DNA of 64,000 bases, taken from positions 2,924 through 66,923 of the forward strand of contig JALSLV010000008.1 in assembly GCA_026988115.1 (NCBI GenBank). Direction: 5' to 3'. Each line of letters starts with the position of its first letter. Position 1 is the stretch's first letter. Of the stretch, positions 38,873 to 52,062 are shown piece after piece. Source of the DNA: Lysobacterales bacterium. GTDB taxonomy: Bacteria; Pseudomonadota; Gammaproteobacteria; Xanthomonadales; Marinicellaceae. A model generated the notes under the pieces. It was given only the letters and a program-made list of their open reading frames with translations. It searched no databases and was not told the DNA's origin. Position numbers and translations under genes: made by a program.

Positions 38873-39045
38873 ATGTGCTAAGAGCGACTAAGAGGGCGTC
38901 TTTAGTGCAGCAGTGAATTACAAAAGACTCCATTTCGAGCCGCTACTTGAGAATCTAAAAAGCCCACTTACCTCAAAAACAACAAATGTACATTTGCACA
39001 TATGCAGACAAAATGATAAAATTTAAATTTTTTAATTATTTGAAA

Positions 39046-39288
39046 ATGAGATTATCAATAGAAGTAACACCAGAACAACACCAGCTTTTAAAAGTGGCAG
39101 CTGCTTTACAAGGTGAGTCAATTAAAGATTTCGTTTTAAAACGGACTTTGCCTGATATAGAAGAGCATATGGCTTTGAAAAAGTTAGAAGATTTTCTACG
39201 CCCAAGAATAAAGTCGGCAAAAGCAGGGAGTTTCACGAAAGATTCAGTAAATGAAATTTTTAAAAGCGTTATAAATAAGAGTATTTAA
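39046..39288 (+). CDS. ribbon-helix-helix type II antitoxin (ParD/DUF1778-like)
   Basis: The ORF starts at 38986, but I prefer the ATG at 39046 (MRLSIEVTPEQHQLLKVAAALQGESIKDFVL), giving 80 aa. Its stop lies 1 nt before the toxin start. Confidence 0.65.
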   Translation: MRLSIEVTPEQHQLLKVAAALQGESIKDFVLKRTLPDIEEHMALKKLEDFLRPRIKSAKAGSFTKDSVNEIFKSVINKSI

Positions 39289-39289
39289 A

Positions 39290-39598
39290 TTGCAAAGTTA
39301 TAAAATTACGGAAGATGCAAAAGTTGATTTAATTGAAATTGCTCACTATACTTTAAATAAATGGGGTAAAGATACATTTATCAAATATAGAAATGGGCTG
39401 GAGAAAGCCTTTAATGCCATTGCTAAACAAACCTCCATTAAGAAAATATTTTCTGAAAAACTGTCCGACGTTTTTGTGAAAAAATATAAGCATCATTACA
39501 TTTTTTATATTAACCAAAAAAACACAGTCATTATTATCGCAGTTATTCATGAAAAACGTGATATCTTAAGTCATTTGACACGACGTTTAGAGTCATAA
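39290..39598 (+). CDS. ParE/RelE-superfamily type II toxin
   Basis: 102 aa with a TTG start abutting the antitoxin stop. It has a ParE-like layout (D..I..Y....G...A..Y...L...) and the C-terminal IIIAVIHEKRD. Confidence 0.65.
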   Translation: MQSYKITEDAKVDLIEIAHYTLNKWGKDTFIKYRNGLEKAFNAIAKQTSIKKIFSEKLSDVFVKKYKHHYIFYINQKNTVIIIAVIHEKRDILSHLTRRLES

Positions 39599-39684: not shown

Positions 39685-41193
39685 ATGAAACAAAAAAACG
39701 AACTTTACGCGGCGGTGGATTTGGGATCCAATTCTTTTCATATGGTGGTGGCTGAGTTTGTTAATCATCAGATGCATGTGATTGATCGGCACAAAGACAT
39801 GGTACGTTTGGCTAACGGACTTGATGATGAAGGGCGATTGTCTGGTGAGAAGATGGATGAAGCGATTTCTTCGCTTGAAAAAATAGGACAGCGCATAGCG
39901 CACATACCCAAATCTCATTTGCGTATTGTTGGTACCAATACATTACGCAAAGCAAAAAATGCTGAGGAGTTTTTGGCGCGGGCATCAAGTGCATTGGGCA
40001 AACCCATTGATATTATTTCTGGGCGTGAAGAAGCGCGAATTTTGTATTTGGGTGTGGCACATTCACTTGCCAGCAATCAGGGCAAACGTTTGGTGATTGA
40101 CATTGGCGGAGGTTCGACTGAGTTGATAATTGGTGAAGAATTTACGCCCCTCTTGCGAGAAAGCTTACACATGGGTTGCGTTAGTTACACAAAAAAGTTT
40201 TTTGCTGACGGCAATATTTCAAAAAGCAATTTCAAAAAAGCCGTTCGTTCGGCGCAACGTCAATTGCTTTCCATTGTTAGTAAATACCAACAGTTGGGCT
40301 GGAACACCGTTATTGGTGCATCAGGAAGTATGCGTTCGACGGCTAAAGTTATTGTGCACAATGAATACGCACGGTATGGCATTGAAAAAGAGGGTTTGGA
40401 TAAACTCATTAAAAAATGTTGTGATTTGGGTACTATTGACAAACTCAAAAATCTGGATGGGCTAAGTTCTCGCCGAAGACCTGTTTTTATCGGTGGATTA
40501 GCCATAATTAAAGCCTTGTTCGATTCACTGGAATTTCAAACCATTCAAGCCTCAAGTGGAGCCTTGCGCGAGGGCATTGTTTATGATTTAAGCGGTCGTT
40601 TGCACCACAATGATATTCGCAGGCGCAGTATTGATAAGCTCGTTAAGCAATTTGAAATTGATATATCGCACAGCAAACGGGTGAAAGCTACCATTGATGA
40701 TTTGATCAACTTAAGCAATATTAAACTCTCTGAATCTCAACACGAATTGCTTAATTGGGCAGCACAATTGCATGAATTGGGTTTAAATATATCTCATTCC
40801 CATTTTGAAAAACACGCAGCTTATATCATTTCTCACGCAGACATGCCTGGTTTTTCTACGCAAGAACAGCTAAAACTATCTGTTATTGTTGCCTCACTCC
40901 GACGTAAAATCAAAAAAGAATGGTTGCAAAAATTGTCGAGTAAACAGCAAGTAAAACTTTTACCATTAATCGTTATATTTCGCGCTGCGACCTTATTAAA
41001 TCGCCCGAGAACTGACGACAATATCCCATTAGAGTCCATCACCTTAGACGATAAAAGCATTGAGATTAAGTTTCAAAACGATTGGCTAAACAATCATCCA
41101 CTTACCTTTGAAGATCTAGAATCTGAGAAGAAGTATCTGAAAAACTTGGGCATTAAGTTAAAACTCTACTCAACTCCATCGCAAGCATCTTGA
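39685..41193 (+). CDS. ppx: exopolyphosphatase / guanosine pentaphosphate phosphohydrolase
   Basis: 502 aa with the ASKHA motifs AAVDLGSNSFHMVV and IDIGGGSTELI. The C-terminal part is HD-like. Confidence 0.9.
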   Translation: MKQKNELYAAVDLGSNSFHMVVAEFVNHQMHVIDRHKDMVRLANGLDDEGRLSGEKMDEAISSLEKIGQRIAHIPKSHLRIVGTNTLRKAKNAEEFLARASSALGKPIDIISGREEARILYLGVAHSLASNQGKRLVIDIGGGSTELIIGEEFTPLLRESLHMGCVSYTKKFFADGNISKSNFKKAVRSAQRQLLSIVSKYQQLGWNTVIGASGSMRSTAKVIVHNEYARYGIEKEGLDKLIKKCCDLGTIDKLKNLDGLSSRRRPVFIGGLAIIKALFDSLEFQTIQASSGALREGIVYDLSGRLHHNDIRRRSIDKLVKQFEIDISHSKRVKATIDDLINLSNIKLSESQHELLNWAAQLHELGLNISHSHFEKHAAYIISHADMPGFSTQEQLKLSVIVASLRRKIKKEWLQKLSSKQQVKLLPLIVIFRAATLLNRPRTDDNIPLESITLDDKSIEIKFQNDWLNNHPLTFEDLESEKKYLKNLGIKLKLYSTPSQAS

Positions 41194-41939
41194 TAACCCA
41201 AATCACAACTTTTTTCATAAAGTAGGGTTGCTTTTTCTTTATCCATTTTTACACCATCACCGTATTCATAATTTACAGCTAAATTATAACAAGCGGTTTC
41301 TTCGTCGTTATCACAGGCATGAGAATAATAGGTGTTGGCTTTTTTTTGATTCTTTTTCGTGCCCTCTCCAGTATCGTACATTATAGCCAGTCCAAGGCAA
41401 CCAATTTCATCCTCTAACTCACATGATGTTGTAAAATATTTGAATGCTGTTTTGCTGTTTTTTTTGACACCATTGCCCTTTTTATACAAGTAGGCTAAAT
41501 TTGCACAGGCTGTCCCTTCTTCATTATTGCAAGCCATGGTGTAATATTTATGTGCTTGTTTATAATTTTGTTTTACGCCTTTTCCGTCAGCGTAAACAAC
41601 CCCAAGGTTATAGCAAGAATAACTGTCATTCAATTCACAACCTTTGCGGTATAACTCAAAGGCTTTGACCTTGTTTACATTCACTCCTTGGCCCGAATCA
41701 TAATAATAGCCCAAAACCCGACAACTGTAGCCATCATTCAAACCACAAGCTTTAGTGTAAAATTTTGTTGCTTTTGCATAGTCAATCAAATTGCCACCCA
41801 AACCTTCATCAAAAACATCTCCAAGATCCGAACACACATCAACATCGCCTTTTTCACAAGCAAGATATGCCTCTTTTGGTATTTCACAAAGAACGGTAAA
41901 ACTTGCTAAAACAAGTAAAGTTAATAAGGTGTATTTCAT
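41166..41939 (-). CDS. Sel1-like repeat, cysteine-rich (Hcp-like) secreted protein
   Basis: 257 aa with a signal peptide. It has about six 36-aa repeats of the form A.KYY..AC......C.NLG..Y..G.GV. Its 3' end overlaps the ppx 3' end by 28 nt. Confidence 0.8.
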   Translation of the reverse strand: MKYTLLTLLVLASFTVLCEIPKEAYLACEKGDVDVCSDLGDVFDEGLGGNLIDYAKATKFYTKACGLNDGYSCRVLGYYYDSGQGVNVNKVKAFELYRKGCELNDSYSCYNLGVVYADGKGVKQNYKQAHKYYTMACNNEEGTACANLAYLYKKGNGVKKNSKTAFKYFTTSCELEDEIGCLGLAIMYDTGEGTKKNQKKANTYYSHACDNDEETACYNLAVNYEYGDGVKMDKEKATLLYEKSCDLGYQDACDGVE

Positions 41940-42102: not shown

Positions 42103-42750
42103 TTACTCTGTTGGATCTTGGTACATAAAACGCTTGTAGCCAAACTTTTTATACAATTTATTAAACACCAAAGTACGCTGCATTTGTGTGTCTTTTAGTT
42201 TAGCAAACATGTCGTATGCCTGGTTAATTAATTGCACTTTATGCTGTTTATCAAACATCATCGTTGCGCCTGAAGTCATGGCAATCTCATCGGCACCAAC
42301 TATTCTGGTGTAGATTAATTGCCCAATAATGCCTTCACTTTTACAAAACCCCAAATCCACAATACGGATTAATTGCGAATCAGGCTCAAGCAAGTTTTGT
42401 AACCAAACATAACTGTTTTGAATATCAATTTTTTCAATAGAATAAACAGAAGGTTTTGTAGCAATCATTGAATCGATTAGTTTGCCTTCAACTTCAGTAA
42501 GCGAGTCCCTGTGTTTTTTATTAAAATTTTCAACACCAGTGCTGCCATTGTTACCTAAGCAATCATTGATAACAAAATCGTAAAAACGGTATTGCTCCCC
42601 TTCGTTTTTAAATGAAATTTTATTCATTCTTAGCATTTTCATCAAACGCGCCGCTTTTTTAAAATGGTTGCGCGCAATGCTGCCCAAAAGTTTTCCATTG
42701 AGCTCCATGCCAACGGCTCTTAAGTTCTGGTATTTTTGTATTTGTTTCAT
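42103..42750 (-). CDS. hypothetical protein (first gene of the accessory island)
   Basis: 215-aa ORF with no recognisable motif. It is divergent from the HTH-methyltransferase gene. Confidence 0.5.
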   Translation of the reverse strand: MKQIQKYQNLRAVGMELNGKLLGSIARNHFKKAARLMKMLRMNKISFKNEGEQYRFYDFVINDCLGNNGSTGVENFNKKHRDSLTEVEGKLIDSMIATKPSVYSIEKIDIQNSYVWLQNLLEPDSQLIRIVDLGFCKSEGIIGQLIYTRIVGADEIAMTSGATMMFDKQHKVQLINQAYDMFAKLKDTQMQRTLVFNKLYKKFGYKRFMYQDPTE

Positions 42751-42798: not shown

Positions 42799-42826
42799 TT
42801 GATAACCATGTATAAGGTTGTATAAT
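42799..42826 (+). promoter_or_regulatory. sigma70-like promoter placing the transcription start at or next to the methyltransferase ATG (leaderless candidate)
   Basis: TTGATA (42799-42804), a 16-nt spacer, then TATAAT (42821-42826). The ATG at 42833 is 6 nt after the -10 element. The region also holds ATAACC...GGTTAT inverted half-sites. Confidence 0.4.
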
Positions 42827-42832
42827 AGGGTT

Positions 42833-44074
42833 ATGAAAACACAATATACGTTATCTGAAGCGGCTAAAATTCTTGGCAAAAATCCTGAAACACTCAGAAG
42901 ATGGGATAATGACAATAAACTTAATGCTATTCGTGAACCTATTAGTAATTATAGGGTTTATAACAAAAAACAGTTAGAAATATTTCCTGAATTTAATGAA
43001 TACATTAAAAACGTCACTGAATCTAATTACGTTAAAGCCGATAGAGATTACTCGGTCATTGAGTTGTTTGCTGGTGCGGGAGGATTAGCCCTAGGAATGG
43101 AGCAAGCAGGCATTAAGTGCGAGGTATTGAATGAAATTGATAAATGGGCATGTCAAACTTTGCGAGAAAATCGACCTGCATGGAATGTACTAGAGGGCGA
43201 TATAAAATCGTGTGATTTTACCGATTACACAAACAAAGTCGATATTGTTACCGGTGGCTTTCCATGCCAAGCCTTTAGTTATGCAGGCAAAAAATTGGGT
43301 TTAAAAGATGCCAGAGGCACATTGTTTTATGAATTTGCTCGTGTGGTAAATGAAGTGAAACCACCGATATGCATTGGTGAAAATGTTCGTGGTTTATTGA
43401 GTCATAAAAAAGGCAAAACATTAGAAGGCATGATTTCAATACTTGATGAAATTGGTTATAACGTCGTTGCTCCGGTTCAAGTGTTAAAGGCCGTTAATTA
43501 TAATGTTCCTCAAAAACGCGAACGTTTAATCCTAGTCGGCATTAGAAAAGACATTGCAACCCAATACAATTATCCAAAGCCCTACGATACTGTTTATAAT
43601 TTGAAAGATGCCTTAAAGAAAGGTGAATTATTTGATTGCGATGTTCCTCAATCAAATGGTTCTACCTACCCTGAGCATAAAGAAAAGGTATTAGAACTCG
43701 TTCCCCCAAAAGGTTATTGGCGAGACTTGCCTTTAGATATTCAGAAAGAGTATATGCAAAAAAGCTTTTATCTAGGCGGTGGTAAAACGGGCATGGCAAG
43801 GCGAATTGGCTGGGATGAGCCTTGTTTAACCTTAACCTGTAGCCCCGCACAAAAACAAACCGAACGCTGTCACCCAGATGAAACCCGTCCTTTTACTGTC
43901 CGAGAATACGCTCGCATCCAAACCTTTCCCGACACATGGAATTTTATAGGTTCAGTCTCGCAACAATACAAGCAAATTGGTAATGCAGTACCAGTAAATT
44001 TGGCGAAGGAGATTGGCTATTCGATCGTTAACTTTTTGAATGACTATTATTTGAGTTTATCAAAGCCCAAATAA
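42833..44074 (+). CDS. DNA (cytosine-5) methyltransferase with N-terminal MerR-type HTH
   Basis: The ORF starts at TTG 42818, but I prefer the ATG at 42833. HTH is YTLSEAAKILGKNPETLRRWD. C5-MTase motifs are I ELFAGAGGL, IV GGFPCQAFS, VI ENVRGL, VIII QKRERL and X GNAVP. Confidence 0.9.
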   Translation: MKTQYTLSEAAKILGKNPETLRRWDNDNKLNAIREPISNYRVYNKKQLEIFPEFNEYIKNVTESNYVKADRDYSVIELFAGAGGLALGMEQAGIKCEVLNEIDKWACQTLRENRPAWNVLEGDIKSCDFTDYTNKVDIVTGGFPCQAFSYAGKKLGLKDARGTLFYEFARVVNEVKPPICIGENVRGLLSHKKGKTLEGMISILDEIGYNVVAPVQVLKAVNYNVPQKRERLILVGIRKDIATQYNYPKPYDTVYNLKDALKKGELFDCDVPQSNGSTYPEHKEKVLELVPPKGYWRDLPLDIQKEYMQKSFYLGGGKTGMARRIGWDEPCLTLTCSPAQKQTERCHPDETRPFTVREYARIQTFPDTWNFIGSVSQQYKQIGNAVPVNLAKEIGYSIVNFLNDYYLSLSKPK

Positions 44075-44646
44075 TAACTGTAATTTTCAAAGTTAATTTC
44101 ATCTAAAAGACTGCGTTGGGATTCATTCGCACTGTTGCTTATTTCTGTCAGTGCTGAATTCTCTGGTTTGTTGGATTTTTCATTAGATTTAAGAAAATCA
44201 TCAATTGCCATTGGTAAGACTTTATACAAATCATACAAGGCACTCTCTTGACCTGTTAGCATTTGATAAAATAAATCTCCAGATATTTTAAACACACGTG
44301 AATGGCTGTATTCTTTACCATTTATAATACCAGCCCAATGTTGTGAAAAACTTTTGGTAGCTAAAATCTGAACCCAATAACATTTGGCTTGTTTATTAGT
44401 GTCTGCATAATGAGCCAATTTTTGAAACAAACTTTCTGCCGAGCTACTGTTCATAGTATTGTGTTTATTTTTAATATCAGCAAACAAACTATCATCTGCT
44501 GCTTTGATATCAAAACCACTTAGATTACCCATTTCATAGCCGTCAATTCCTCCGAGAATTTCTTCATGAAAAGTTCCTATTGAATTGTTGATGGATTTAT
44601 CTATTTGACGGCTTATTTCCGTTTTGATTAATGTTTCTTCATCCAA
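44047..44646 (-). CDS. putative type II restriction endonuclease (PD-(D/E)xK-like), start uncertain or possibly 5'-truncated
   Basis: 199-aa ORF convergent with the MTase, overlapping it by 28 nt. It has the candidate catalytic pattern GFD-x10-ADIK. The only start is TTG. The frame stays open 55 codons further upstream, to 44811, without ATG, GTG or TTG. Confidence 0.5.
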   Translation of the reverse strand: MDEETLIKTEISRQIDKSINNSIGTFHEEILGGIDGYEMGNLSGFDIKAADDSLFADIKNKHNTMNSSSAESLFQKLAHYADTNKQAKCYWVQILATKSFSQHWAGIINGKEYSHSRVFKISGDLFYQMLTGQESALYDLYKVLPMAIDDFLKSNEKSNKPENSALTEISNSANESQRSLLDEINFENYSYYLGFDKLK

Positions 44647-44975
44647 TTTATTAAACTTCGTATCAAAAGTTAGTTTTATGACATCAATCTTATTTTTGTA
44701 GAATTTCTTTTTTGAGATATCAGCTTTGGCTTTTAAATATGAATTGTGAAGGTTTTCTATGCAAGCAAGAAAGTAAGTGACTGTCCGAAATGTAGGATAG
44801 GTATATGTTTGTCATTATTACAATATAAACTTATTAACTGATTTTTCAAGTTTTAAATTAGCTGATAAACACTAAAAATATTTACATCTTACGGTAGGAA
44901 CATGTGATTTCTGTATGTTTTAGACAAGTTAGATGTTAACCTGAAAAGTTAATATGCAATTTAAATTTAAAAACC

Positions 44976-45992
44976 CTATGAACCTTTGATGATATTTTTC
45001 TTTACAAAATCAACTCCTACTCGAATTGGATGTGCAAAACTATGATTAGCAATTCGTTGTGCATAATTTTGTTTAAGTGTAAATAAATAAGTAATTTTAT
45101 TTTTATTGGAATTGTTATCAGAATCCCAATCTAAAAATTCAATTTGTTTATCAATAAAGTTTGTACAAGGTATGTAAAGTTGGATTGGTTTTACATATTC
45201 ACCATTTGTCCAAGATATACATGAATCTGCGTTAATGTATGAAATAAATCCTCCATCTCCTTTTTGTAGACCCTTTTCTAAATTTATTTTAAAACCTTTA
45301 ACAAAGAAATATCTGAAATCAACACTACTTTTGCCATTATGTAAGACACAATCACATAATGCAGTAATACATAAATAATATTTATCATCGCTTCCAACAA
45401 ATATGTCTCCAAAACCAAGTTTAGTTTTTGAGTTTAAATAAGATCCATTATAAAAAATATTCAATTTCGCAATTTCCATGTTACTTATATTGAATCTCTT
45501 TTTAGAAATTTTATTTAAAAAATCATAATCAAGAATTTTTAGCTTTGAATCTTCCAAAGTGATTCTGGCTTGCTCTAACAATATGGACATCATATAAGAA
45601 TTAAATTCTTGGTGTAAATCGTGATCAATTAATTGTTTCCGATGATACATAAGCGTATTTAAATTAGTGTCTAATAAATTTTCGTCAATAAATGATGAGT
45701 AATTTGTAAAATTATTTTGCATATCAAGGCCTAACAATTGTGTAAAATTATTTTCACTTTTGGTAATTTGAGAAATCAGTTTTTTAAGAATTTTTTTAGC
45801 ACTATTTTCTTTTTTAGAAATTATTGTAATAATTGTATTGTTAATGTTTAAAGTGAAATTCTCCCTATTTATATGTGTTGGTATTGGATTAATTTCTTTA
45901 GATTTATGATAGCTTGAAAATGCATACTTAACTTTAATCAATGCAATACCAAAATCAGTTTCATCAGTAATATTTTTTATTATATTAGGCAA
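44976..45992 (-). CDS. unknown 338-aa protein, last gene of the MTase/GHKL/receiver operon (candidate effector)
   Basis: It has a TTG start overlapping the upstream stop by 13 nt and no obvious SD. It is very N/K/I-rich. I recognise no catalytic motif. There is a Cys cluster, CITALCDCV. Confidence 0.55.
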   Translation of the reverse strand: MPNIIKNITDETDFGIALIKVKYAFSSYHKSKEINPIPTHINRENFTLNINNTIITIISKKENSAKKILKKLISQITKSENNFTQLLGLDMQNNFTNYSSFIDENLLDTNLNTLMYHRKQLIDHDLHQEFNSYMMSILLEQARITLEDSKLKILDYDFLNKISKKRFNISNMEIAKLNIFYNGSYLNSKTKLGFGDIFVGSDDKYYLCITALCDCVLHNGKSSVDFRYFFVKGFKINLEKGLQKGDGGFISYINADSCISWTNGEYVKPIQLYIPCTNFIDKQIEFLDWDSDNNSNKNKITYLFTLKQNYAQRIANHSFAHPIRVGVDFVKKNIIKGS

Positions 45993-46546
45993 CTGATTAT
46001 CGATATTTTGAACTCAATATACAAACTTCCGTTTAAGGACGGGTCTACAAATGAAATTTTTTCAAAAAGACTCTTATGATCCTCTTCATAAATATCTAAT
46101 TCATCTTTTACAGCTGTATAGAATAGCTCATTTTTACCAGAAAAGTACGTTGTGATATTGTTGATTATTTCTTCATTATTATTTTGAGATGTGTAAATCG
46201 AACAAAAATGTATATGTTTTTCTTTAATAATTTTTGAAAGCAGTTTTAATGAATAAATCTCTCCTCCATTATCATCAAGCTTCCAATCTAACAAAACCAG
46301 GTCTCTTCTTTTAAAAAGAAAGTCTATACATTTTTCATCATCAATATCAGAAATATTAAATTTATGTATAGCTAAAGAAACTCCTTCTTTTTTAAAATTT
46401 TTATAGAGTTTTTTTGAAAGGTCAATTTCCATACAATTTGACTTAGGCTCTTCTGGTGTATAAAATTCAAATGCTTTTTCATCAATGTATATTGCTGACT
46501 TAATTGATTCTTTAATAATCTCTGTTGCTTTTTGATTTAAGGTCAT
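45980..46546 (-). CDS. receiver (REC)-like domain protein
   Basis: 188 aa with CheY-like landmarks: acidic pair D22-E23 (AIYIDEK), DLVLLD87WKL, CSIYT119S and K138. Confidence 0.6.
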   Translation of the reverse strand: MTLNQKATEIIKESIKSAIYIDEKAFEFYTPEEPKSNCMEIDLSKKLYKNFKKEGVSLAIHKFNISDIDDEKCIDFLFKRRDLVLLDWKLDDNGGEIYSLKLLSKIIKEKHIHFCSIYTSQNNNEEIINNITTYFSGKNELFYTAVKDELDIYEEDHKSLFEKISFVDPSLNGSLYIEFKISIISCLI

Positions 46547-46566: not shown

Positions 46567-49464
46567 TTATTTTAGTGGTTTAATAACGAAACAGGCTCCA
46601 TTCAGTATATTATAATCTTTATCATTTGTTGCAAAAATATCGAACCCGCTCTCATTAAGACTCTGCTTTGCAAGATATAATCCAATACCTCTTCCATTAG
46701 GTCGATTTGAATAAAATATTTCAAATATTTTATTCAATTTATGTTCTTCTATTTTAAACCCTGAGTTACATATAACAATTTCATCACTTTTGTCATTATA
46801 ATCTAACAGAATATGGCGATCCTTTTTATTTCTCATCCAATAAATAGCATTGTTTATTATATTTATATAAACAGTATGTATAACAGGTTCTTTAATTATC
46901 AATATATGTTTATTGTATGCATGTGTTCCTTCAAGTCTTATATCATAGGACTTTATACGATTTTCAAAAAATTTATTCAAATAACTATATATTGCTAACC
47001 CACTTACTTTTTTAGGTATTACACCAGATATTCTATATAGAGGGGATAATAAGTCATACTTATCTTCTAATTGATTAAAATTTTGCTTTAGAAATTGAAA
47101 TTGAATTTCATTTTTTACATTATTCTCTAAACTTAATTTAGCTATTGAACTATTGATTTTTGCATATAACTGGTTAAATTCATGATCAATTATTTCAACT
47201 GCAATACCTAATTGAGCCGTCTCTCTAGTTTGTTCCCAATTGTATTTTATAGTTTCGTATTCTGCTCTATATGCTCCTTGGATTAGATCCTCATCAATGT
47301 CAAAACTTAATTTATTGAGGTGTTCTATCAGTGGTGAAATTTCCTTATTAATTTGTTCTCTAAGGAATTCAAACTTGAGTGCCAATTTTTCAGAATGAAG
47401 AAGAACATCTTCTTTAGAATAAATCGAACCGATAACACTGTCTTTATCAAAATTCAAATCATCTATAATTCTTCTTGTTCGAAATGAAAAATCTTTAGAA
47501 ATCTTGGCTGATTGATTTTTTAATTGTTCTCTGTTATCAGTTATTAGTTTTTCAAGAGCTCCATTGTATTTTTGATAACTTTTAACAAACTCCATTTTCA
47601 ATTCTTTGATTTCGAGTTTGCCTTTAACTTGAATCATTAATTGTTTACTTTTATTTTTTGTCGTTTCAATGAAACTCATAAGCTTAGTTTCATATTTATC
47701 TAACCGATCTAACTGTGCATCTGTTGGCTTGTATCTCTTTGGGATTTTAGGTATTAAATTTTGAAACTCTATATCTAATGTGTGTAATCGATCTAGTATA
47801 CTTTCAATTTCTGAATAAAGAACACTTTGAAAAGTTGTTTTATCTTCAAGCTTATTAAGTAGTTTTTGGTATTCATTCTTATATTTTTCTAGTTTGATTG
47901 GATACTCTTTTAAGGACCGAGTAAATGCTTTTTTCTCTTCAATCGCTCTCTTATTATCAAGTTTGATAACTTCATGTTGTTGTTTTAGGTTTGCTTTTTT
48001 GTCTAAGAAAATTGATTTGTTAGCTTCAGTTCCAAAATACTCTTGGGCTAGTTCAATAAAAAAAGATTCTAAATCATTTTTAAATTTTCTGTACGCGGAA
48101 TTATTTATTAAACCTTCACGACTTGATTTATCACTTAATTTTTCATTTATTTTTCTGGATAGAGAAATATATCCGAACATTCTTCTGTGTGAAAAGTATG
48201 AACTTGCTCTTAAAGCTCTTCTTTTTTCAAAGCCTAGAAAATCAAAGTCAGTTCTCCCATAAGGCAACACTCTGAAATTATCCCTATAAATATACAGCCC
48301 CCCATTTGCACTAACTTTATCACTAATCCTTTTCCAAGCACTTGATTCAAGTTTAGATTCTTTTTCTCGACCTTGTGAAACACCTACTTTTATCGGAAAA
48401 GATCCATAGTAACTTCGGATGTCTTTTTTTCTAGGGTTTGTATATGTATAATTAATTTCTTCATCATATATTCTTAAAGTACCATTAAAGGAGCCTTTTC
48501 CATCAAATATCCCTTCAATTACAACATCTGCCAGATCAAAGTCATCTGCAGAAAAAAATTGACCATAGGAAGTTAGAAAATCAACTTCTGAGTTAATATC
48601 TTTATATATTGGAATAGCTGTTTTAACAATAATATTATTTTTTATAAACTCATTTGTAAATCCTGAAAGACTAGATGCAATAAATTGCCTATCACTTAAG
48701 CCATCATCATCTTTTTTCGTAATATCTATTATTTGCTCAATAGGCTCAAAAATTATAAACTTCGTTCCATGATTGTTCTCAATGTCTATTAAGTCATCAA
48801 GTAAATTATCCTCCAAAAAACAAGGTAGTTTTGAATTACTAATGGAGGCCTCAATTTCAGACTTTAAACTTTTCTGGTTTTCTTCCCATATTGGTTTACC
48901 ATCGATGTCGTTTTCTTTTTTAAAATTATTTAAGAAGGTTTTTTTTAGAGTTTCAAATTTTTTAGGAAAATCAGATGCACTTTTAATTGATTCTACTGGA
49001 ATATCAACATCATCTAAAAATAAATTATAGTTTTCTAATAACCTCCAATCAAAAAACAAGGCTTCTAATTCGTGCCCCTGCTTTTTTGTGAGCATTAACA
49101 TAGGGTTTCCTAGAAACGCGACTGAAAGTCTTCCAATTCCTTTTTCACCTGACTTTATTCTAGGTTTTTTCCAAAGTGTTTCTTCACTTTCTTTTTCTTC
49201 AAGCTTAGGTCTACTTTTAGAATCTGTTCCAAGTACTAACCATTTTTCAATAATGTCTTTTCTTGACATTCCTTTACCATCATCTGTCATTACAAATAAT
49301 GGAGTATCAACACCTTCATAAGAATCTAAATAAATTTCTGCCGTCAGGTGATCAGCATAAGCATCATAACCATTTTTCCATAATTCCGTGATAGCAGTTG
49401 GCAAATCAGCAATTTGACCTTTGCCAAGTAAATCTACTGCTCTAGCTTTAGTCCTGAATTGCAT
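46567..49464 (-). CDS. 965-aa double-GHKL protein: N-terminal Bergerat ATPase, coiled-coil-like middle, C-terminal histidine-kinase-like DHp plus CA module
   Basis: N-terminal motifs: ELWKNGYDAY (E27, N31, D34), TDDGKGM and GEKGIGRLS. Residues about 485-730 are K/E/L/N-rich. C-terminal motifs: H-box-like IIDH761EFNQL, N-box INIINNAIYW, F-box IFEIFYS and G2 box GRGIGLYLAKQ. Confidence 0.75.
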   Translation of the reverse strand: MQFRTKARAVDLLGKGQIADLPTAITELWKNGYDAYADHLTAEIYLDSYEGVDTPLFVMTDDGKGMSRKDIIEKWLVLGTDSKSRPKLEEKESEETLWKKPRIKSGEKGIGRLSVAFLGNPMLMLTKKQGHELEALFFDWRLLENYNLFLDDVDIPVESIKSASDFPKKFETLKKTFLNNFKKENDIDGKPIWEENQKSLKSEIEASISNSKLPCFLEDNLLDDLIDIENNHGTKFIIFEPIEQIIDITKKDDDGLSDRQFIASSLSGFTNEFIKNNIIVKTAIPIYKDINSEVDFLTSYGQFFSADDFDLADVVIEGIFDGKGSFNGTLRIYDEEINYTYTNPRKKDIRSYYGSFPIKVGVSQGREKESKLESSAWKRISDKVSANGGLYIYRDNFRVLPYGRTDFDFLGFEKRRALRASSYFSHRRMFGYISLSRKINEKLSDKSSREGLINNSAYRKFKNDLESFFIELAQEYFGTEANKSIFLDKKANLKQQHEVIKLDNKRAIEEKKAFTRSLKEYPIKLEKYKNEYQKLLNKLEDKTTFQSVLYSEIESILDRLHTLDIEFQNLIPKIPKRYKPTDAQLDRLDKYETKLMSFIETTKNKSKQLMIQVKGKLEIKELKMEFVKSYQKYNGALEKLITDNREQLKNQSAKISKDFSFRTRRIIDDLNFDKDSVIGSIYSKEDVLLHSEKLALKFEFLREQINKEISPLIEHLNKLSFDIDEDLIQGAYRAEYETIKYNWEQTRETAQLGIAVEIIDHEFNQLYAKINSSIAKLSLENNVKNEIQFQFLKQNFNQLEDKYDLLSPLYRISGVIPKKVSGLAIYSYLNKFFENRIKSYDIRLEGTHAYNKHILIIKEPVIHTVYINIINNAIYWMRNKKDRHILLDYNDKSDEIVICNSGFKIEEHKLNKIFEIFYSNRPNGRGIGLYLAKQSLNESGFDIFATNDKDYNILNGACFVIKPLK

Positions 49465-50539
49465 TGTAGTTTTCTATAATTGCTTGCCCAACTCTTTTTG
49501 CATATTCAGGAGGTACTGCATTACCTATTAATCTAGCAATATCTCCCATGCTTGTTCCTGAGAATCTATAATCCTTTGGGAATGTTTGTAATGTGGCACC
49601 CTCTCTTATTGAAAGCGCTCTGTTTTCTTGTGGGTGAACGAAGCGGCCATTAGATACACTAAAAAATTTCGTTGTAATTGTTGGAGCTGCTTTATCCCAC
49701 CACAGCCTACCAAATGTGTCTTTAAAGGAATTATCTTTACCAATAAAACAGTTTAATTGTAGTTCTGGATCATCTTTAAAACCTGATCTGTCACCACCAT
49801 CCTTTTTAACTTTTTTTAGTCGCCTTAAAGTTAGGTTTGTAATATTTGGAACAGAATGCATGAAATCTGTTTTATCAGAGTAGCCAGCTTTGATTCTTTT
49901 AAATCCATTTACAATACCAATCGTGTCACGAACAGTATATTTCTTAATTGCTTTTATTGGTTCTAATTCTTCTTTAGTTACTCTGTTGGCAATAAGCGTA
50001 AATCTTTTGCGATTTTGTGGCACTCCATAATCTGCTGTATTATGAACATCAAAATGTACTTTGTATTTATTTTTTATTAACCAAGATATAAAAGAAGCCA
50101 AACCACTTTCCCTTTTTTTGCGCAGTACACCTGGTACATTTTCTACGACAACATAGCCGGGGTTAAAGTACCTAACAAATCTTTCAAATTCTTTAAGTAA
50201 ATTTTTAGATTTTTTTGCTTTGGTTTTATCTGTATTTATAATGCTCCAAAATTGACAAGGGCTACAGCCAATTAATAACAATTCATCGTCATTCCTTTGA
50301 ATATCTAATGTTGACTCTAAGTCTTTTGCTTTTAAGTTAAATACATCTGCTTCAATAAACTTAGCTCCTGTTATATTGGCTTCATAAGTTTGTTTGCATT
50401 TTTTTTCGTTATCTATACCTGCTAAAACTTTTATACCTGCTTGTTGCATACCACAACTCATTCCGCCTCCACCACAGAAAAAATCCACTGCTTTAATTTT
50501 TGGTTTGTCGTTTGATTTTTTATTTATATTGTTAATCAT
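49448..50539 (-). CDS. DNA (cytosine-5) methyltransferase (Dcm family), first gene of the operon
   Basis: 363 aa with motifs I DFFCGGGGM, IV GCSPCQFWS, VI ENVPGV, VIII QNRKRF and X GNAVPP. Its 3' end overlaps the next gene's start by 17 nt. Confidence 0.9.
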   Translation of the reverse strand: MINNINKKSNDKPKIKAVDFFCGGGGMSCGMQQAGIKVLAGIDNEKKCKQTYEANITGAKFIEADVFNLKAKDLESTLDIQRNDDELLLIGCSPCQFWSIINTDKTKAKKSKNLLKEFERFVRYFNPGYVVVENVPGVLRKKRESGLASFISWLIKNKYKVHFDVHNTADYGVPQNRKRFTLIANRVTKEELEPIKAIKKYTVRDTIGIVNGFKRIKAGYSDKTDFMHSVPNITNLTLRRLKKVKKDGGDRSGFKDDPELQLNCFIGKDNSFKDTFGRLWWDKAAPTITTKFFSVSNGRFVHPQENRALSIREGATLQTFPKDYRFSGTSMGDIARLIGNAVPPEYAKRVGQAIIENYNAIQD

Positions 50540-50883: not shown

Positions 50884-52062
50884 TTACTGGTTTAGCATTT
50901 GCAATAATTCAAACAGACTGATGACATCAGTTTCCGCATCCAGTGGATATCTGTCATTACCGCCATAGACGACAAAACTTTCATCCGGTTTAATATCATC
51001 TAGTGCGTGATAAAAGCCTTTTGTGACTTTTGGCGCTAGTCCACTTTTGATTTCTATTGCCCAAATTTTGTTGTTTGGGAATTCTAAGATTAAATCTATT
51101 TCAGCTCCTGCTGCGGTTCGGTAAAAGCTTGCTTTTGTTGCTGGTTTTGTAAGGCTTAGAATATTTTCTATAACATAGCCTTCCCAACTTGATCCGTAAA
51201 CTGGGTGACCTGATAATTGGTTGTAATCTGCTATTCCGAGTAAGGCATGAGTAATACCACTGTCGCGGACATATATACGTGGTGATTTAACAAGTCTTTT
51301 TTTGGTGTTTACATAGAGTGGTTGAAACTTTCGCACCAGTAATAAATCAACTAATAAATCGATATAACTACTAATCGTGGGTGCTGATGTTGATAAACTA
51401 CTGGCTAAATTTGAGGCATTGAGTAATTGTCCTTGGTTATGTGCGAGCATTGTCCATAGGCGTTGTAATGTTTCTGCTGGGATACGTGGGCCAAACTGCG
51501 GCACATCTCGTTCTAGATAGGTTCTTATAAAGTTTGTTCGGTAGGCGAAACTGTCTTCATCATTTTTGGCAAGATAACTATCTGGAAATCCACCCCGTAT
51601 CCAAAGATTATGCTCAATTATATCTTGTTGTTTTTTATTGTTATGAATCTCTAATAAATTTAATGGGTTCATGTCTATGTATTCAATACGCCCGGCTAGT
51701 GTTTCTCCTGATTGTTTTAACAAATCTATTGATGCTGATCCAAGTATCAAAAATCGGTTTGTTTTTAAACCGTTTCTTCTGCCTGTATCAATAACGCCTC
51801 TTAGTACCTGAAAGATTTCTGGCATACGGTGTATTTCATCTAAAATAATCAGTTTTTCTTCATTTCTATTAAAGAATAAAACAGGGTCTGTTAGTTTTTC
51901 ACGGTCTTGTATTGCTTCTAAATCCAAATAAATAGCAGGGATGGTTTGTGCGACTTGGTGAGCCAGCGTTGTTTTACCAACTTGGCGTGGACCAATCAAG
52001 GCAACAGCTGCTTGTCTATTGAGTGCTTTATGGACTTTTTTGATGATATTTCGCTTAAACAT
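50884..52062 (-). CDS. AAA+ ATPase with DUF4143-type C-terminal domain
   Basis: 392 aa with Walker A GPRQVGKTT and Walker B LIILDEIH. The overall layout matches the widespread AAA_14/DUF4143 family (from memory). Confidence 0.75.
   Translation of the reverse strand: MFKRNIIKKVHKALNRQAAVALIGPRQVGKTTLAHQVAQTIPAIYLDLEAIQDREKLTDPVLFFNRNEEKLIILDEIHRMPEIFQVLRGVIDTGRRNGLKTNRFLILGSASIDLLKQSGETLAGRIEYIDMNPLNLLEIHNNKKQQDIIEHNLWIRGGFPDSYLAKNDEDSFAYRTNFIRTYLERDVPQFGPRIPAETLQRLWTMLAHNQGQLLNASNLASSLSTSAPTISSYIDLLVDLLLVRKFQPLYVNTKKRLVKSPRIYVRDSGITHALLGIADYNQLSGHPVYGSSWEGYVIENILSLTKPATKASFYRTAAGAEIDLILEFPNNKIWAIEIKSGLAPKVTKGFYHALDDIKPDESFVVYGGNDRYPLDAETDVISLFELLQMLNQ

Follow-up and report, generated by a model that had tools for sequence, protein, structure and literature searches.

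The object of this analysis is a 188-amino-acid (aa) open reading frame (ORF) on the minus strand of a 64,000-nucleotide stretch of the Lysobacterales contig JALSLV010000008.1 (assembly GCA_026988115.1). The whole stretch is called the window below, and all coordinates refer to it. An earlier note on this DNA had described the ORF as a stand-alone receiver-like protein, with CheY-type landmarks, in a methyltransferase operon. Our results indicate that it very probably covers only the first four-fifths of the receiver-like domain encoded by a frameshifted PF19192 gene with a product of ~523 aa, which would make it a probable pseudogene within a decaying acquired island. The receiver-like signal of the ORF is real and far beyond chance. 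The domain pair involved is PF19192/PF19191, published in 2021 (PMC8011034); both the pair and its cassette are thus already known, the novelty implied by the note falls away, and the window copy is a disrupted member of the family.

The split receiver-effector gene

The gene and the two cassette genes that precede it are laid out as follows:

49448..50539, minus strand: C5 cytosine DNA methyltransferase (Dcm), 363 aa, first gene of the cassette (PF00145, E=3.4e-55; TIGR00675)
46567..49464, minus strand: soluble kinase-like protein of 965 aa, intact ORF (PF13589, E=9e-14; PF19191, E=2.4e-20; PF02518, E=3.3e-10)
45980..46546, minus strand: 188-aa ORF running from ATG to stop, 5′ fragment of the receiver-effector gene (PF19192, E=1.3e-30)
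46006..46009, minus strand: frameshift site, a run of four A (A4; TTTT on the plus strand), placed by three-frame translations, reconstruction and junction alignment
44976..46013, minus strand: 3′ part of the receiver-effector gene; its reading frame opens at 46013, and TTG at 45992 is the start of the listed 338-aa ORF

The 188-aa ORF begins 20 nucleotides (nt) past the end of the kinase gene. It contains the elements alpha0, beta1 (with D22/E23), alpha1, beta2, alpha2, beta3, alpha3, beta4 and alpha4 as well as half of a helical insert; the codons of D87 and T119 lie at 46286-46288 and 46190-46192, respectively. The 338-aa ORF (44976-45992) overlaps it by 13 nt in a different frame. In the numbering of the reconstructed protein, this second part supplies the remainder of that insert, then a beta-hairpin, beta5 with K245, alpha5, a helical linker (~267-367) and a beta-rich domain (~381-503).

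Three-frame translation revealed that homology follows the frame of the 188-aa ORF up to ...SLYIEF (F179) and resumes in the -1 frame from NIDNQLPNII... (N181/I182). The final 9 residues of the ORF (ISIISCLI*) are an out-of-frame read-through, and short homologues that extend beyond residue 188 go on to match the beginning of the 338-aa ORF. One A added to the A4 run gives ...YIEFKNIDNQLPN... within a product of 523 aa, and the junction of this reconstruction is gaplessly colinear with the homologues. Database proteins of 511-573 aa, which carry the NCBI name 'response regulator receiver domain', span 98-99% of the reconstruction with up to 63% identity. Similarly, most of the best 150 of 726 cluster representatives are full-length, at 510-600 aa. 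The window lacks a single polypeptide of ~523 aa (typically ~510-600 aa in the family) and has the two pieces of 188 and 338 aa in its place. Since the relatives are single proteins that cover 99% of the 188+338 fusion, and since one A restores that fusion, we read the window gene as frameshifted. The shift falls near residue 180, inside the receiver module, and the 188-aa product therefore lacks beta5, its lysine and alpha5.

We then compared 73 loci from species-representative (GTDB) genomes, 69 of which cover the whole receiver protein. In 67 of these 69, the receiver and the 338-aa part are encoded in a single frame. The two split exceptions are both copies in one long-read assembly of Niabella hibiscisoli, and an Algoriphagus locus outside the 69 (L074) is likewise split. 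Thus, every intact copy in this sample has the receiver and the output part fused in one protein. This settles the two options which the earlier note had offered for regulation of the 338-aa protein: action as one polypeptide agrees with the loci and with the coverage of the fusion, while the separate stand-alone protein does not.

A naturally split, two-subunit version, in which a functional single-domain receiver would regulate a separate 338-aa protein by contact, is nevertheless conceivable on some grounds. Both ORFs are open, the TTG start lies 13 nt before the stop of the 188-aa ORF, which makes translational coupling conceivable, and a confident model is obtained for the 338-aa piece alone. 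The single polypeptide found in almost all related loci speaks against such a version, as do the short database homologues, which are fragments. The break itself lies inside the receiver fold and separates D87 and T119 from beta5, K245 and alpha5; moreover, the first ORF ends in its out-of-frame residues and no Shine-Dalgarno-like motif precedes the TTG. We regard this explanation as highly improbable.

Two candidates for an authentic short form were considered and rejected. Genuinely stand-alone homologues were sought among the short matches P0008 and P0003, but both turned out to be pieces of broken-up or truncated genes: the cassette around P0008 has fallen apart into numerous small ORFs, and every contig bearing P0003 ends ~100 nt after the P0003 stop. 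Programmed -1 frameshifting at UUC-AAA-A was also discarded, because this site departs from the canonical slippery heptamer and 67/69 homologues need no shift.

A further broken copy was seen in a JGI metagenome contig (Ga0558117_01405, 2015-9457; L077), where the cassette appears shredded. Its kinase is present as pieces of 858 and 67 aa and its receiver gene as pieces of 185 and 157 aa together with small ORFs; the DUF2357 gene downstream is likewise fragmented. This may reflect either a decaying island or a low-accuracy assembly.

The receiver-like module and its output region

A profile search for Response_reg-like families, which the earlier note had proposed, identified PF19192 (Response_reg_2). 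The 188-aa ORF scores 107.4 bits (cut-off 27), with residues 14-158 aligned to model positions 1-166 of 180, and the same family is matched by 85/85 relatives. NCBIfam holds no family for either ORF piece.

Conservation was assessed in a close set of 116 full-length relatives (38-63% identity) and in a divergent set of 124 full-length representatives, drawn from an exhaustive profile search that returned 726 clusters at 50% identity (E<=1e-3). The landmarks named in the earlier note, i.e., D22-E23 (SAIYIDEK), D87 (DLVLLDWKL) and T119 (FCSIYTS), are present and near-invariant. Among the 124 divergent representatives, D22, D87, W88 and T/S119 are each conserved in 100% and D/E23 in 95%, so the conservation of the Asp, on which the receiver interpretation had been made to depend, holds. 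Additionally, a profile-profile alignment with hhalign (probability 93.7%) placed D87 on CheY D57 and T119 on CheY T87; the receiver profile was built from five canonical receivers, CheY, Spo0F, PhoB, OmpR and NtrC.

The lysine is a different matter. K138 (YFSGK) had been taken for the receiver lysine, but its column is not conserved: it holds Y in 37% and K in 24% of 117 close relatives and otherwise mostly F or E, and among the divergent representatives the commonest residues are Y/L/I/F, with K outside these four. The invariant lysine is K245 of the reconstructed protein, conserved in 99-100% and the sole invariant lysine in a suitable structural place. It corresponds to residue 60 of the 338-aa ORF (codon at 45813-45815).

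To see how these residues are arranged, the 523-aa reconstruction was modelled with AlphaFold2 on 117 sequences (predicted local distance difference test (pLDDT) 91.2, predicted template modelling score 0.85). The predicted order is helix 3-14, beta1 17-22, alpha1 39-53, beta2 57-62, alpha2 65-78, beta3 83-87, alpha3 96-108, beta4 114-119, alpha4 124-134, the helical insert 140-210, a hairpin at 224-235, a strand at 238-244 (beta5), K245 and a helix at 250-263 (alpha5). In the model, these elements follow the (beta-alpha)5 order of a receiver, with a helical insert of ~100 residues between alpha4 and beta5. The long interval between residues 22 and 87, already remarked upon in the earlier note, is accounted for by an insert between beta1 and alpha1 (residues ~24-38). 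When the 338-aa piece was modelled alone, it reached a pLDDT of 92 and the strand at 238-244 was shortened to 238-241, as would be expected if its distal part paired with the N-terminal sheet.

The intact protein is therefore predicted to carry a receiver-like (beta-alpha)5 module with the full quintet D22, D/E23, D87, T/S119 and K245. In the same model, the Pfam family ends inside the helical insert, and the invariant lysine, beta5 and alpha5 lie ~100 residues beyond the matched region. This offers a lesson for annotation: as the Pfam model stops short of beta5 and the lysine, split copies mimic complete 'stand-alone receivers'.

Foldseek searches of the PDB and BFVD returned receivers as the best neighbours of the model (6xvu, 3lte, a 3H5I fusion, ComE and a phage hybrid kinase-regulator; probability 0.97-1.0). 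The same full-model search yielded nothing for the C-terminal half, and hmmsearch of the family profile against PDB sequences gave chance matches only (apolipophorin, E~0.5).

That C-terminal half forms an output region of ~260 residues (~265-523; 44976-45755, minus strand), made up of the helical and beta-rich parts named above and modelled with a pLDDT of ~92. Its invariant positions are G380-D381, C393xT395xxC398-D399-C400, W446, Q497-R498xxN501 and R509xG511. The best PDB match of the 338-aa model is MazF, with a probability of 0.44, E~1 and a template modelling (TM) score normalised to the target of 0.53, which is a weak lead only. Judging from the model, the output half appears to be a conserved fold without known relatives.

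The cassette, its neighbours and the state of the island

The kinase-like protein combines a paraMORC-type GHKL ATPase module (HATPase_c_3, ~23-145) with a dimerisation and histidine phosphotransfer (DHp) domain of the HEF_HK type (751-813) and a HATPase_c domain (861-961). Its His761 lies in the HEF_HK motif IIDHEFNQL (codon at 47182-47184), and residues 1-964 align with homologues at 38-76% identity. The stop of the C5-methylase gene overlaps the start of the kinase gene by 17 nt. The methylase shares 50-79% full-length identity with the Dcm preceding the kinase in related loci.

This arrangement is strongly conserved. A full-length kinase homologue stands directly upstream of the receiver gene in 67/69 related loci with enough upstream sequence, which bears out the earlier note's pairing of the receiver with the kinase-like protein in the methyltransferase operon. 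The collinear order Dcm, kinase, receiver protein, with gaps of -13 to +48 nt, was found in 66/69 loci.

The next gene downstream is varied and often a nuclease, located 7-20 nt away on the same strand (61 loci, L001-L076). It was recognised as HNH_2 in 11 of the 61, as Vsr in 10, as NOV_C in 5, as HNH with DUF3427 in 4 and as a second Dcm in another 4; McrB_N and the McrC-like partner (DUF2357/PDDEXK_7) of a downstream pair were found in 9 and 7 loci, respectively. Several of these nucleases are of modification-dependent types, which is odd beside a C5-methylase.

In the window, the next gene encodes an Eco47II-type endonuclease with its own MerR-Dcm methylase:

44047..44815, minus strand: Eco47II-type restriction endonuclease gene, disrupted (PF09553, E=6e-61, profile positions 52-201 only)
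42818..44074, plus strand: MerR helix-turn-helix plus C5 methyltransferase protein, 418 aa, intact (PF00145, E=3.7e-86; MerR_1)

These two genes are a separate restriction-modification (R-M) unit. The same pair also stands beside the cassette in Pedobacter ghigonis and in a Bacteroides metagenome-assembled genome, as copies 67-77% identical to those of the window (L002, L044).

The endonuclease gene is broken by a 4-bp tandem duplication, TTGC TTGC (44761-44769), and removal of one copy yields a 255-aa ORF colinear with homologues. As indicated by tblastn, its first ~17 codons lie in another frame; the listed 199-aa ORF (44047-44646) is an N-terminally truncated remnant. Both methylase genes and the 2.9-kb kinase gene are uninterrupted, and other split genes are not evident in the 64-kb window. 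The MerR-Dcm methylase looks like an orphaned methylase in the making.

The island lies between ppx (39685-41193) and the atp operon (from 52371). GC content is 25-30% over ~44-50 kb, compared with ~38-43% in the flanks, and the nearest relatives of all three cassette proteins are from Bacteroidota (60-79% identity). These two features together point to horizontal acquisition. A scan for promoters and terminators gave counts at chance level.

It should be considered whether the split of the receiver-effector gene is a sequencing or assembly error, so that the organism would have an intact ~523-aa protein and a functional cassette. The shift lies in a homopolymer, with A4 where A5 is expected, and this counts against a pseudogene. 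Apart from this shift, no stop interrupts either half, and each closely resembles its homologues. Additionally, the founding gene of the family in Pectobacterium Pb1692 was annotated as two split ORFs, and a split of this kind was put down there to misassembly or gene-prediction error (PMC8011034). On the other side stands the neighbouring endonuclease: a 4-bp, non-homopolymer tandem duplication is atypical of read errors and favours real decay. The AT-rich kinase ORF and all other long ORFs of the window are uninterrupted, and the genes that are damaged, a candidate output gene and an endonuclease, form the pattern expected from selection against toxic components. An error is possible, but we give it limited credence. 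The simplest and most likely reading is that a defence island arrived by horizontal transfer and that its endonuclease and candidate output gene have been inactivated.

Several other ORFs were observed around the island. An AAA_14 + DUF4143 ATPase of 392 aa (50884-52062, minus strand) flanks the methylase side of the cassette. At the border of the island lie a 257-aa secreted protein of Sel1-like repeats (41166-41939, minus strand; GxGVxxNxxKAxxxYxKxC units, judged by eye) and a 215-aa ORF without a Pfam family (42103-42750, minus strand). Just outside it, two overlapping plus-strand ORFs of 100 and 102 aa (38986-39598) were picked out by eye as a candidate pair of an antitoxin and a ParE-RelE-type toxin.

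Possible mechanism and comparison with known systems

We tentatively propose, with limited confidence, that the intact cassette represents a restriction or abortive-infection system of an uncharacterised kind, controlled by a phosphorelay. The N-terminal GHKL/MORC-like module of the kinase would sense the state of DNA or nucleotides; more specifically, a DNA-clamping MORC-like ATPase might detect unmethylated or foreign DNA. The kinase core would then autophosphorylate His761 and pass the phosphoryl group to Asp87, and the phosphorylated receiver would switch on the C-terminal output domain with its novel fold. That domain could act on DNA or on the variable downstream nuclease gene, while the methyltransferase would mark self DNA. 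Under such a scheme, the output domain (GD, CxTxxCDC, QRxxN) might itself cut nucleic acid or license the interchangeable downstream nuclease, be it HNH_2, McrBC-like, NOV_C, Vsr or a type II restriction endonuclease (REase). The whole would be a restriction or defence module gated by a phosphorelay, with a logic similar to that of Detocs.

Several observations weigh against this proposal. PF00072 (Response_reg) was matched at E<=1 neither by the window protein nor by any relative (0/85). The Foldseek matches to receivers have E-values of 0.02-0.4 and TM scores normalised to the target of 0.46-0.57, over ~115 columns (beta1-alpha4) only. Similarly, hhalign gave no confident profile alignment beyond alpha4; with the helical insert deleted in silico, the placement of beta5/K245 onto CheY K109 was a zero-confidence extension for which a control segment was equally 'good'. 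The contact of K245 with the D87 pocket is thus inferred only from secondary-structure order and invariance. For the output region, no Pfam family, no PDB relative by fold or sequence and no recognisable catalytic fold were found. Finally, the literature searched contained only passing citations since 2021 and no biochemical or genetic experiments on the family.

Some of these points would suit a pseudo-receiver, i.e., an unphosphorylated fold used for scaffolding or dimerisation, next to a 'kinase' that is mainly a MORC-like DNA ATPase. The missing PF00072 match, the weak structural E-values and the lack of published experiments all fit, as does the large insert between alpha4 and beta5. Additionally, HEF_HK lacks the T/N phosphatase position at H+4 (H761-E-F-N-Q in the window), as a 2026 preprint notes for PF19191. 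Yet the five residues of the phospho-chemistry are invariant or conservatively substituted in the 124 divergent representatives of a family of 726 clusters, and the adjoining kinase keeps the DHp histidine with its adjacent acidic residue as well as a complete catalytic and ATP-binding domain. According to PMC12632262, pseudo-receivers are defined by the loss of just such residues. We consider a pseudo-receiver unlikely.

It is worth stressing that the window itself matters little, being a fragment of a probably dead copy in a family already described. The family is worthwhile for experiments: it comprises 726 clusters and offers a rigid three-gene operon, a complete quintet, an unusual insert of ~100 residues, a confidently modelled output domain without relatives and a variable downstream nuclease slot. 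If the relay operates as proposed, it would be the second independent case, after Detocs, of two-component signalling as a direct immune or restriction switch, and it would link MORC-type ATPases to a phosphorelay. In that case, the broken window copy would illustrate how a toxic effector is selected against.

The closest known system is the domain pair defined, by purely computational means, by Bellieny-Rabelo, Pretorius & Moleleki 2021 (Genome Biol Evol, PMC8011034) as PF19192 and PF19191. They reported 91.6% linkage of the two domains across 644 regions, upstream C5-methylases and a neighbourhood of HNH_2, Vsr and type II genes; they also described the conserved Asp, the acidic pair, the Thr and a Lys, and traced the kinase back to paraMORC ATPases. 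The cassette studied here has the same Pfam families above threshold, the same order of genes (Dcm, then HATPase_c_3 + HEF_HK + HATPase_c, termed 'group 1', then the receiver-like gene), the same conserved Asp, acidic pair and Thr, and the same R-M association (HNH_2, Vsr, type II REases). It differs in that the window copy is frameshifted and has its closest relatives in Bacteroidota, whereas the published set is mostly from Proteobacteria. The conserved C-terminal domain of ~260 aa shown here is uncharacterised in that paper.

With CheY-type receivers (PF00072), which include its nearest structural neighbours in the PDB and BFVD, the protein shares the acidic pair after beta1, the Asp ending beta3 and the Thr ending beta4, as well as a predicted flavodoxin-like beta-alpha order and a putative counterpart of the Lys after beta5. 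In contrast to them, it has no PF00072 match, and it carries an extra N-terminal helix, an insert of ~15 residues after beta1 and the ~100-residue helical insert with a hairpin between alpha4 and beta5. An aromatic switch residue three positions before the Lys is also missing; that position is I242 in the window protein.

Detocs (DtcA/DtcB/DtcC; Rousset et al. 2023, bioRxiv 10.1101/2023.01.24.525353), in which mutants of the kinase His or the receiver Asp abolish defence, is the nearest validated analogue in logic. In principle, both would serve in defence and pair a cytoplasmic kinase with a receiver whose fusion partner is a non-transcriptional effector domain. Membership of the cassette in Detocs was rejected, since a PADLOC-DB scan gave no DtcA, DtcB or DtcC matches; the receiver pieces matched nothing in that database and the kinase only a spurious Csx20 (E=0.003). 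Unlike Detocs, the cassette has neither the buffer receiver (DtcB) or any third receiver gene nor a PNP effector. Its sensor is a MORC-like GHKL ATPase in place of tetratricopeptide repeats, and it is obligatorily linked to a C5-methyltransferase.

The paraMORC GHKL ATPases (Iyer, Abhiman & Aravind 2008, PMC2292703) resemble the cassette in having an N-terminal HATPase_c_3 module amid methylases and nucleases. In VcSduA, of the paraMORC3/Shedu type (PMC12137116), the GHKL ATPase is proposed to control a nuclease. In the cassette, unlike in these proteins, there is no fused PD-(D/E)xK nuclease: a histidine-kinase core is joined to the GHKL module in its stead, and the separate receiver protein carries the output.

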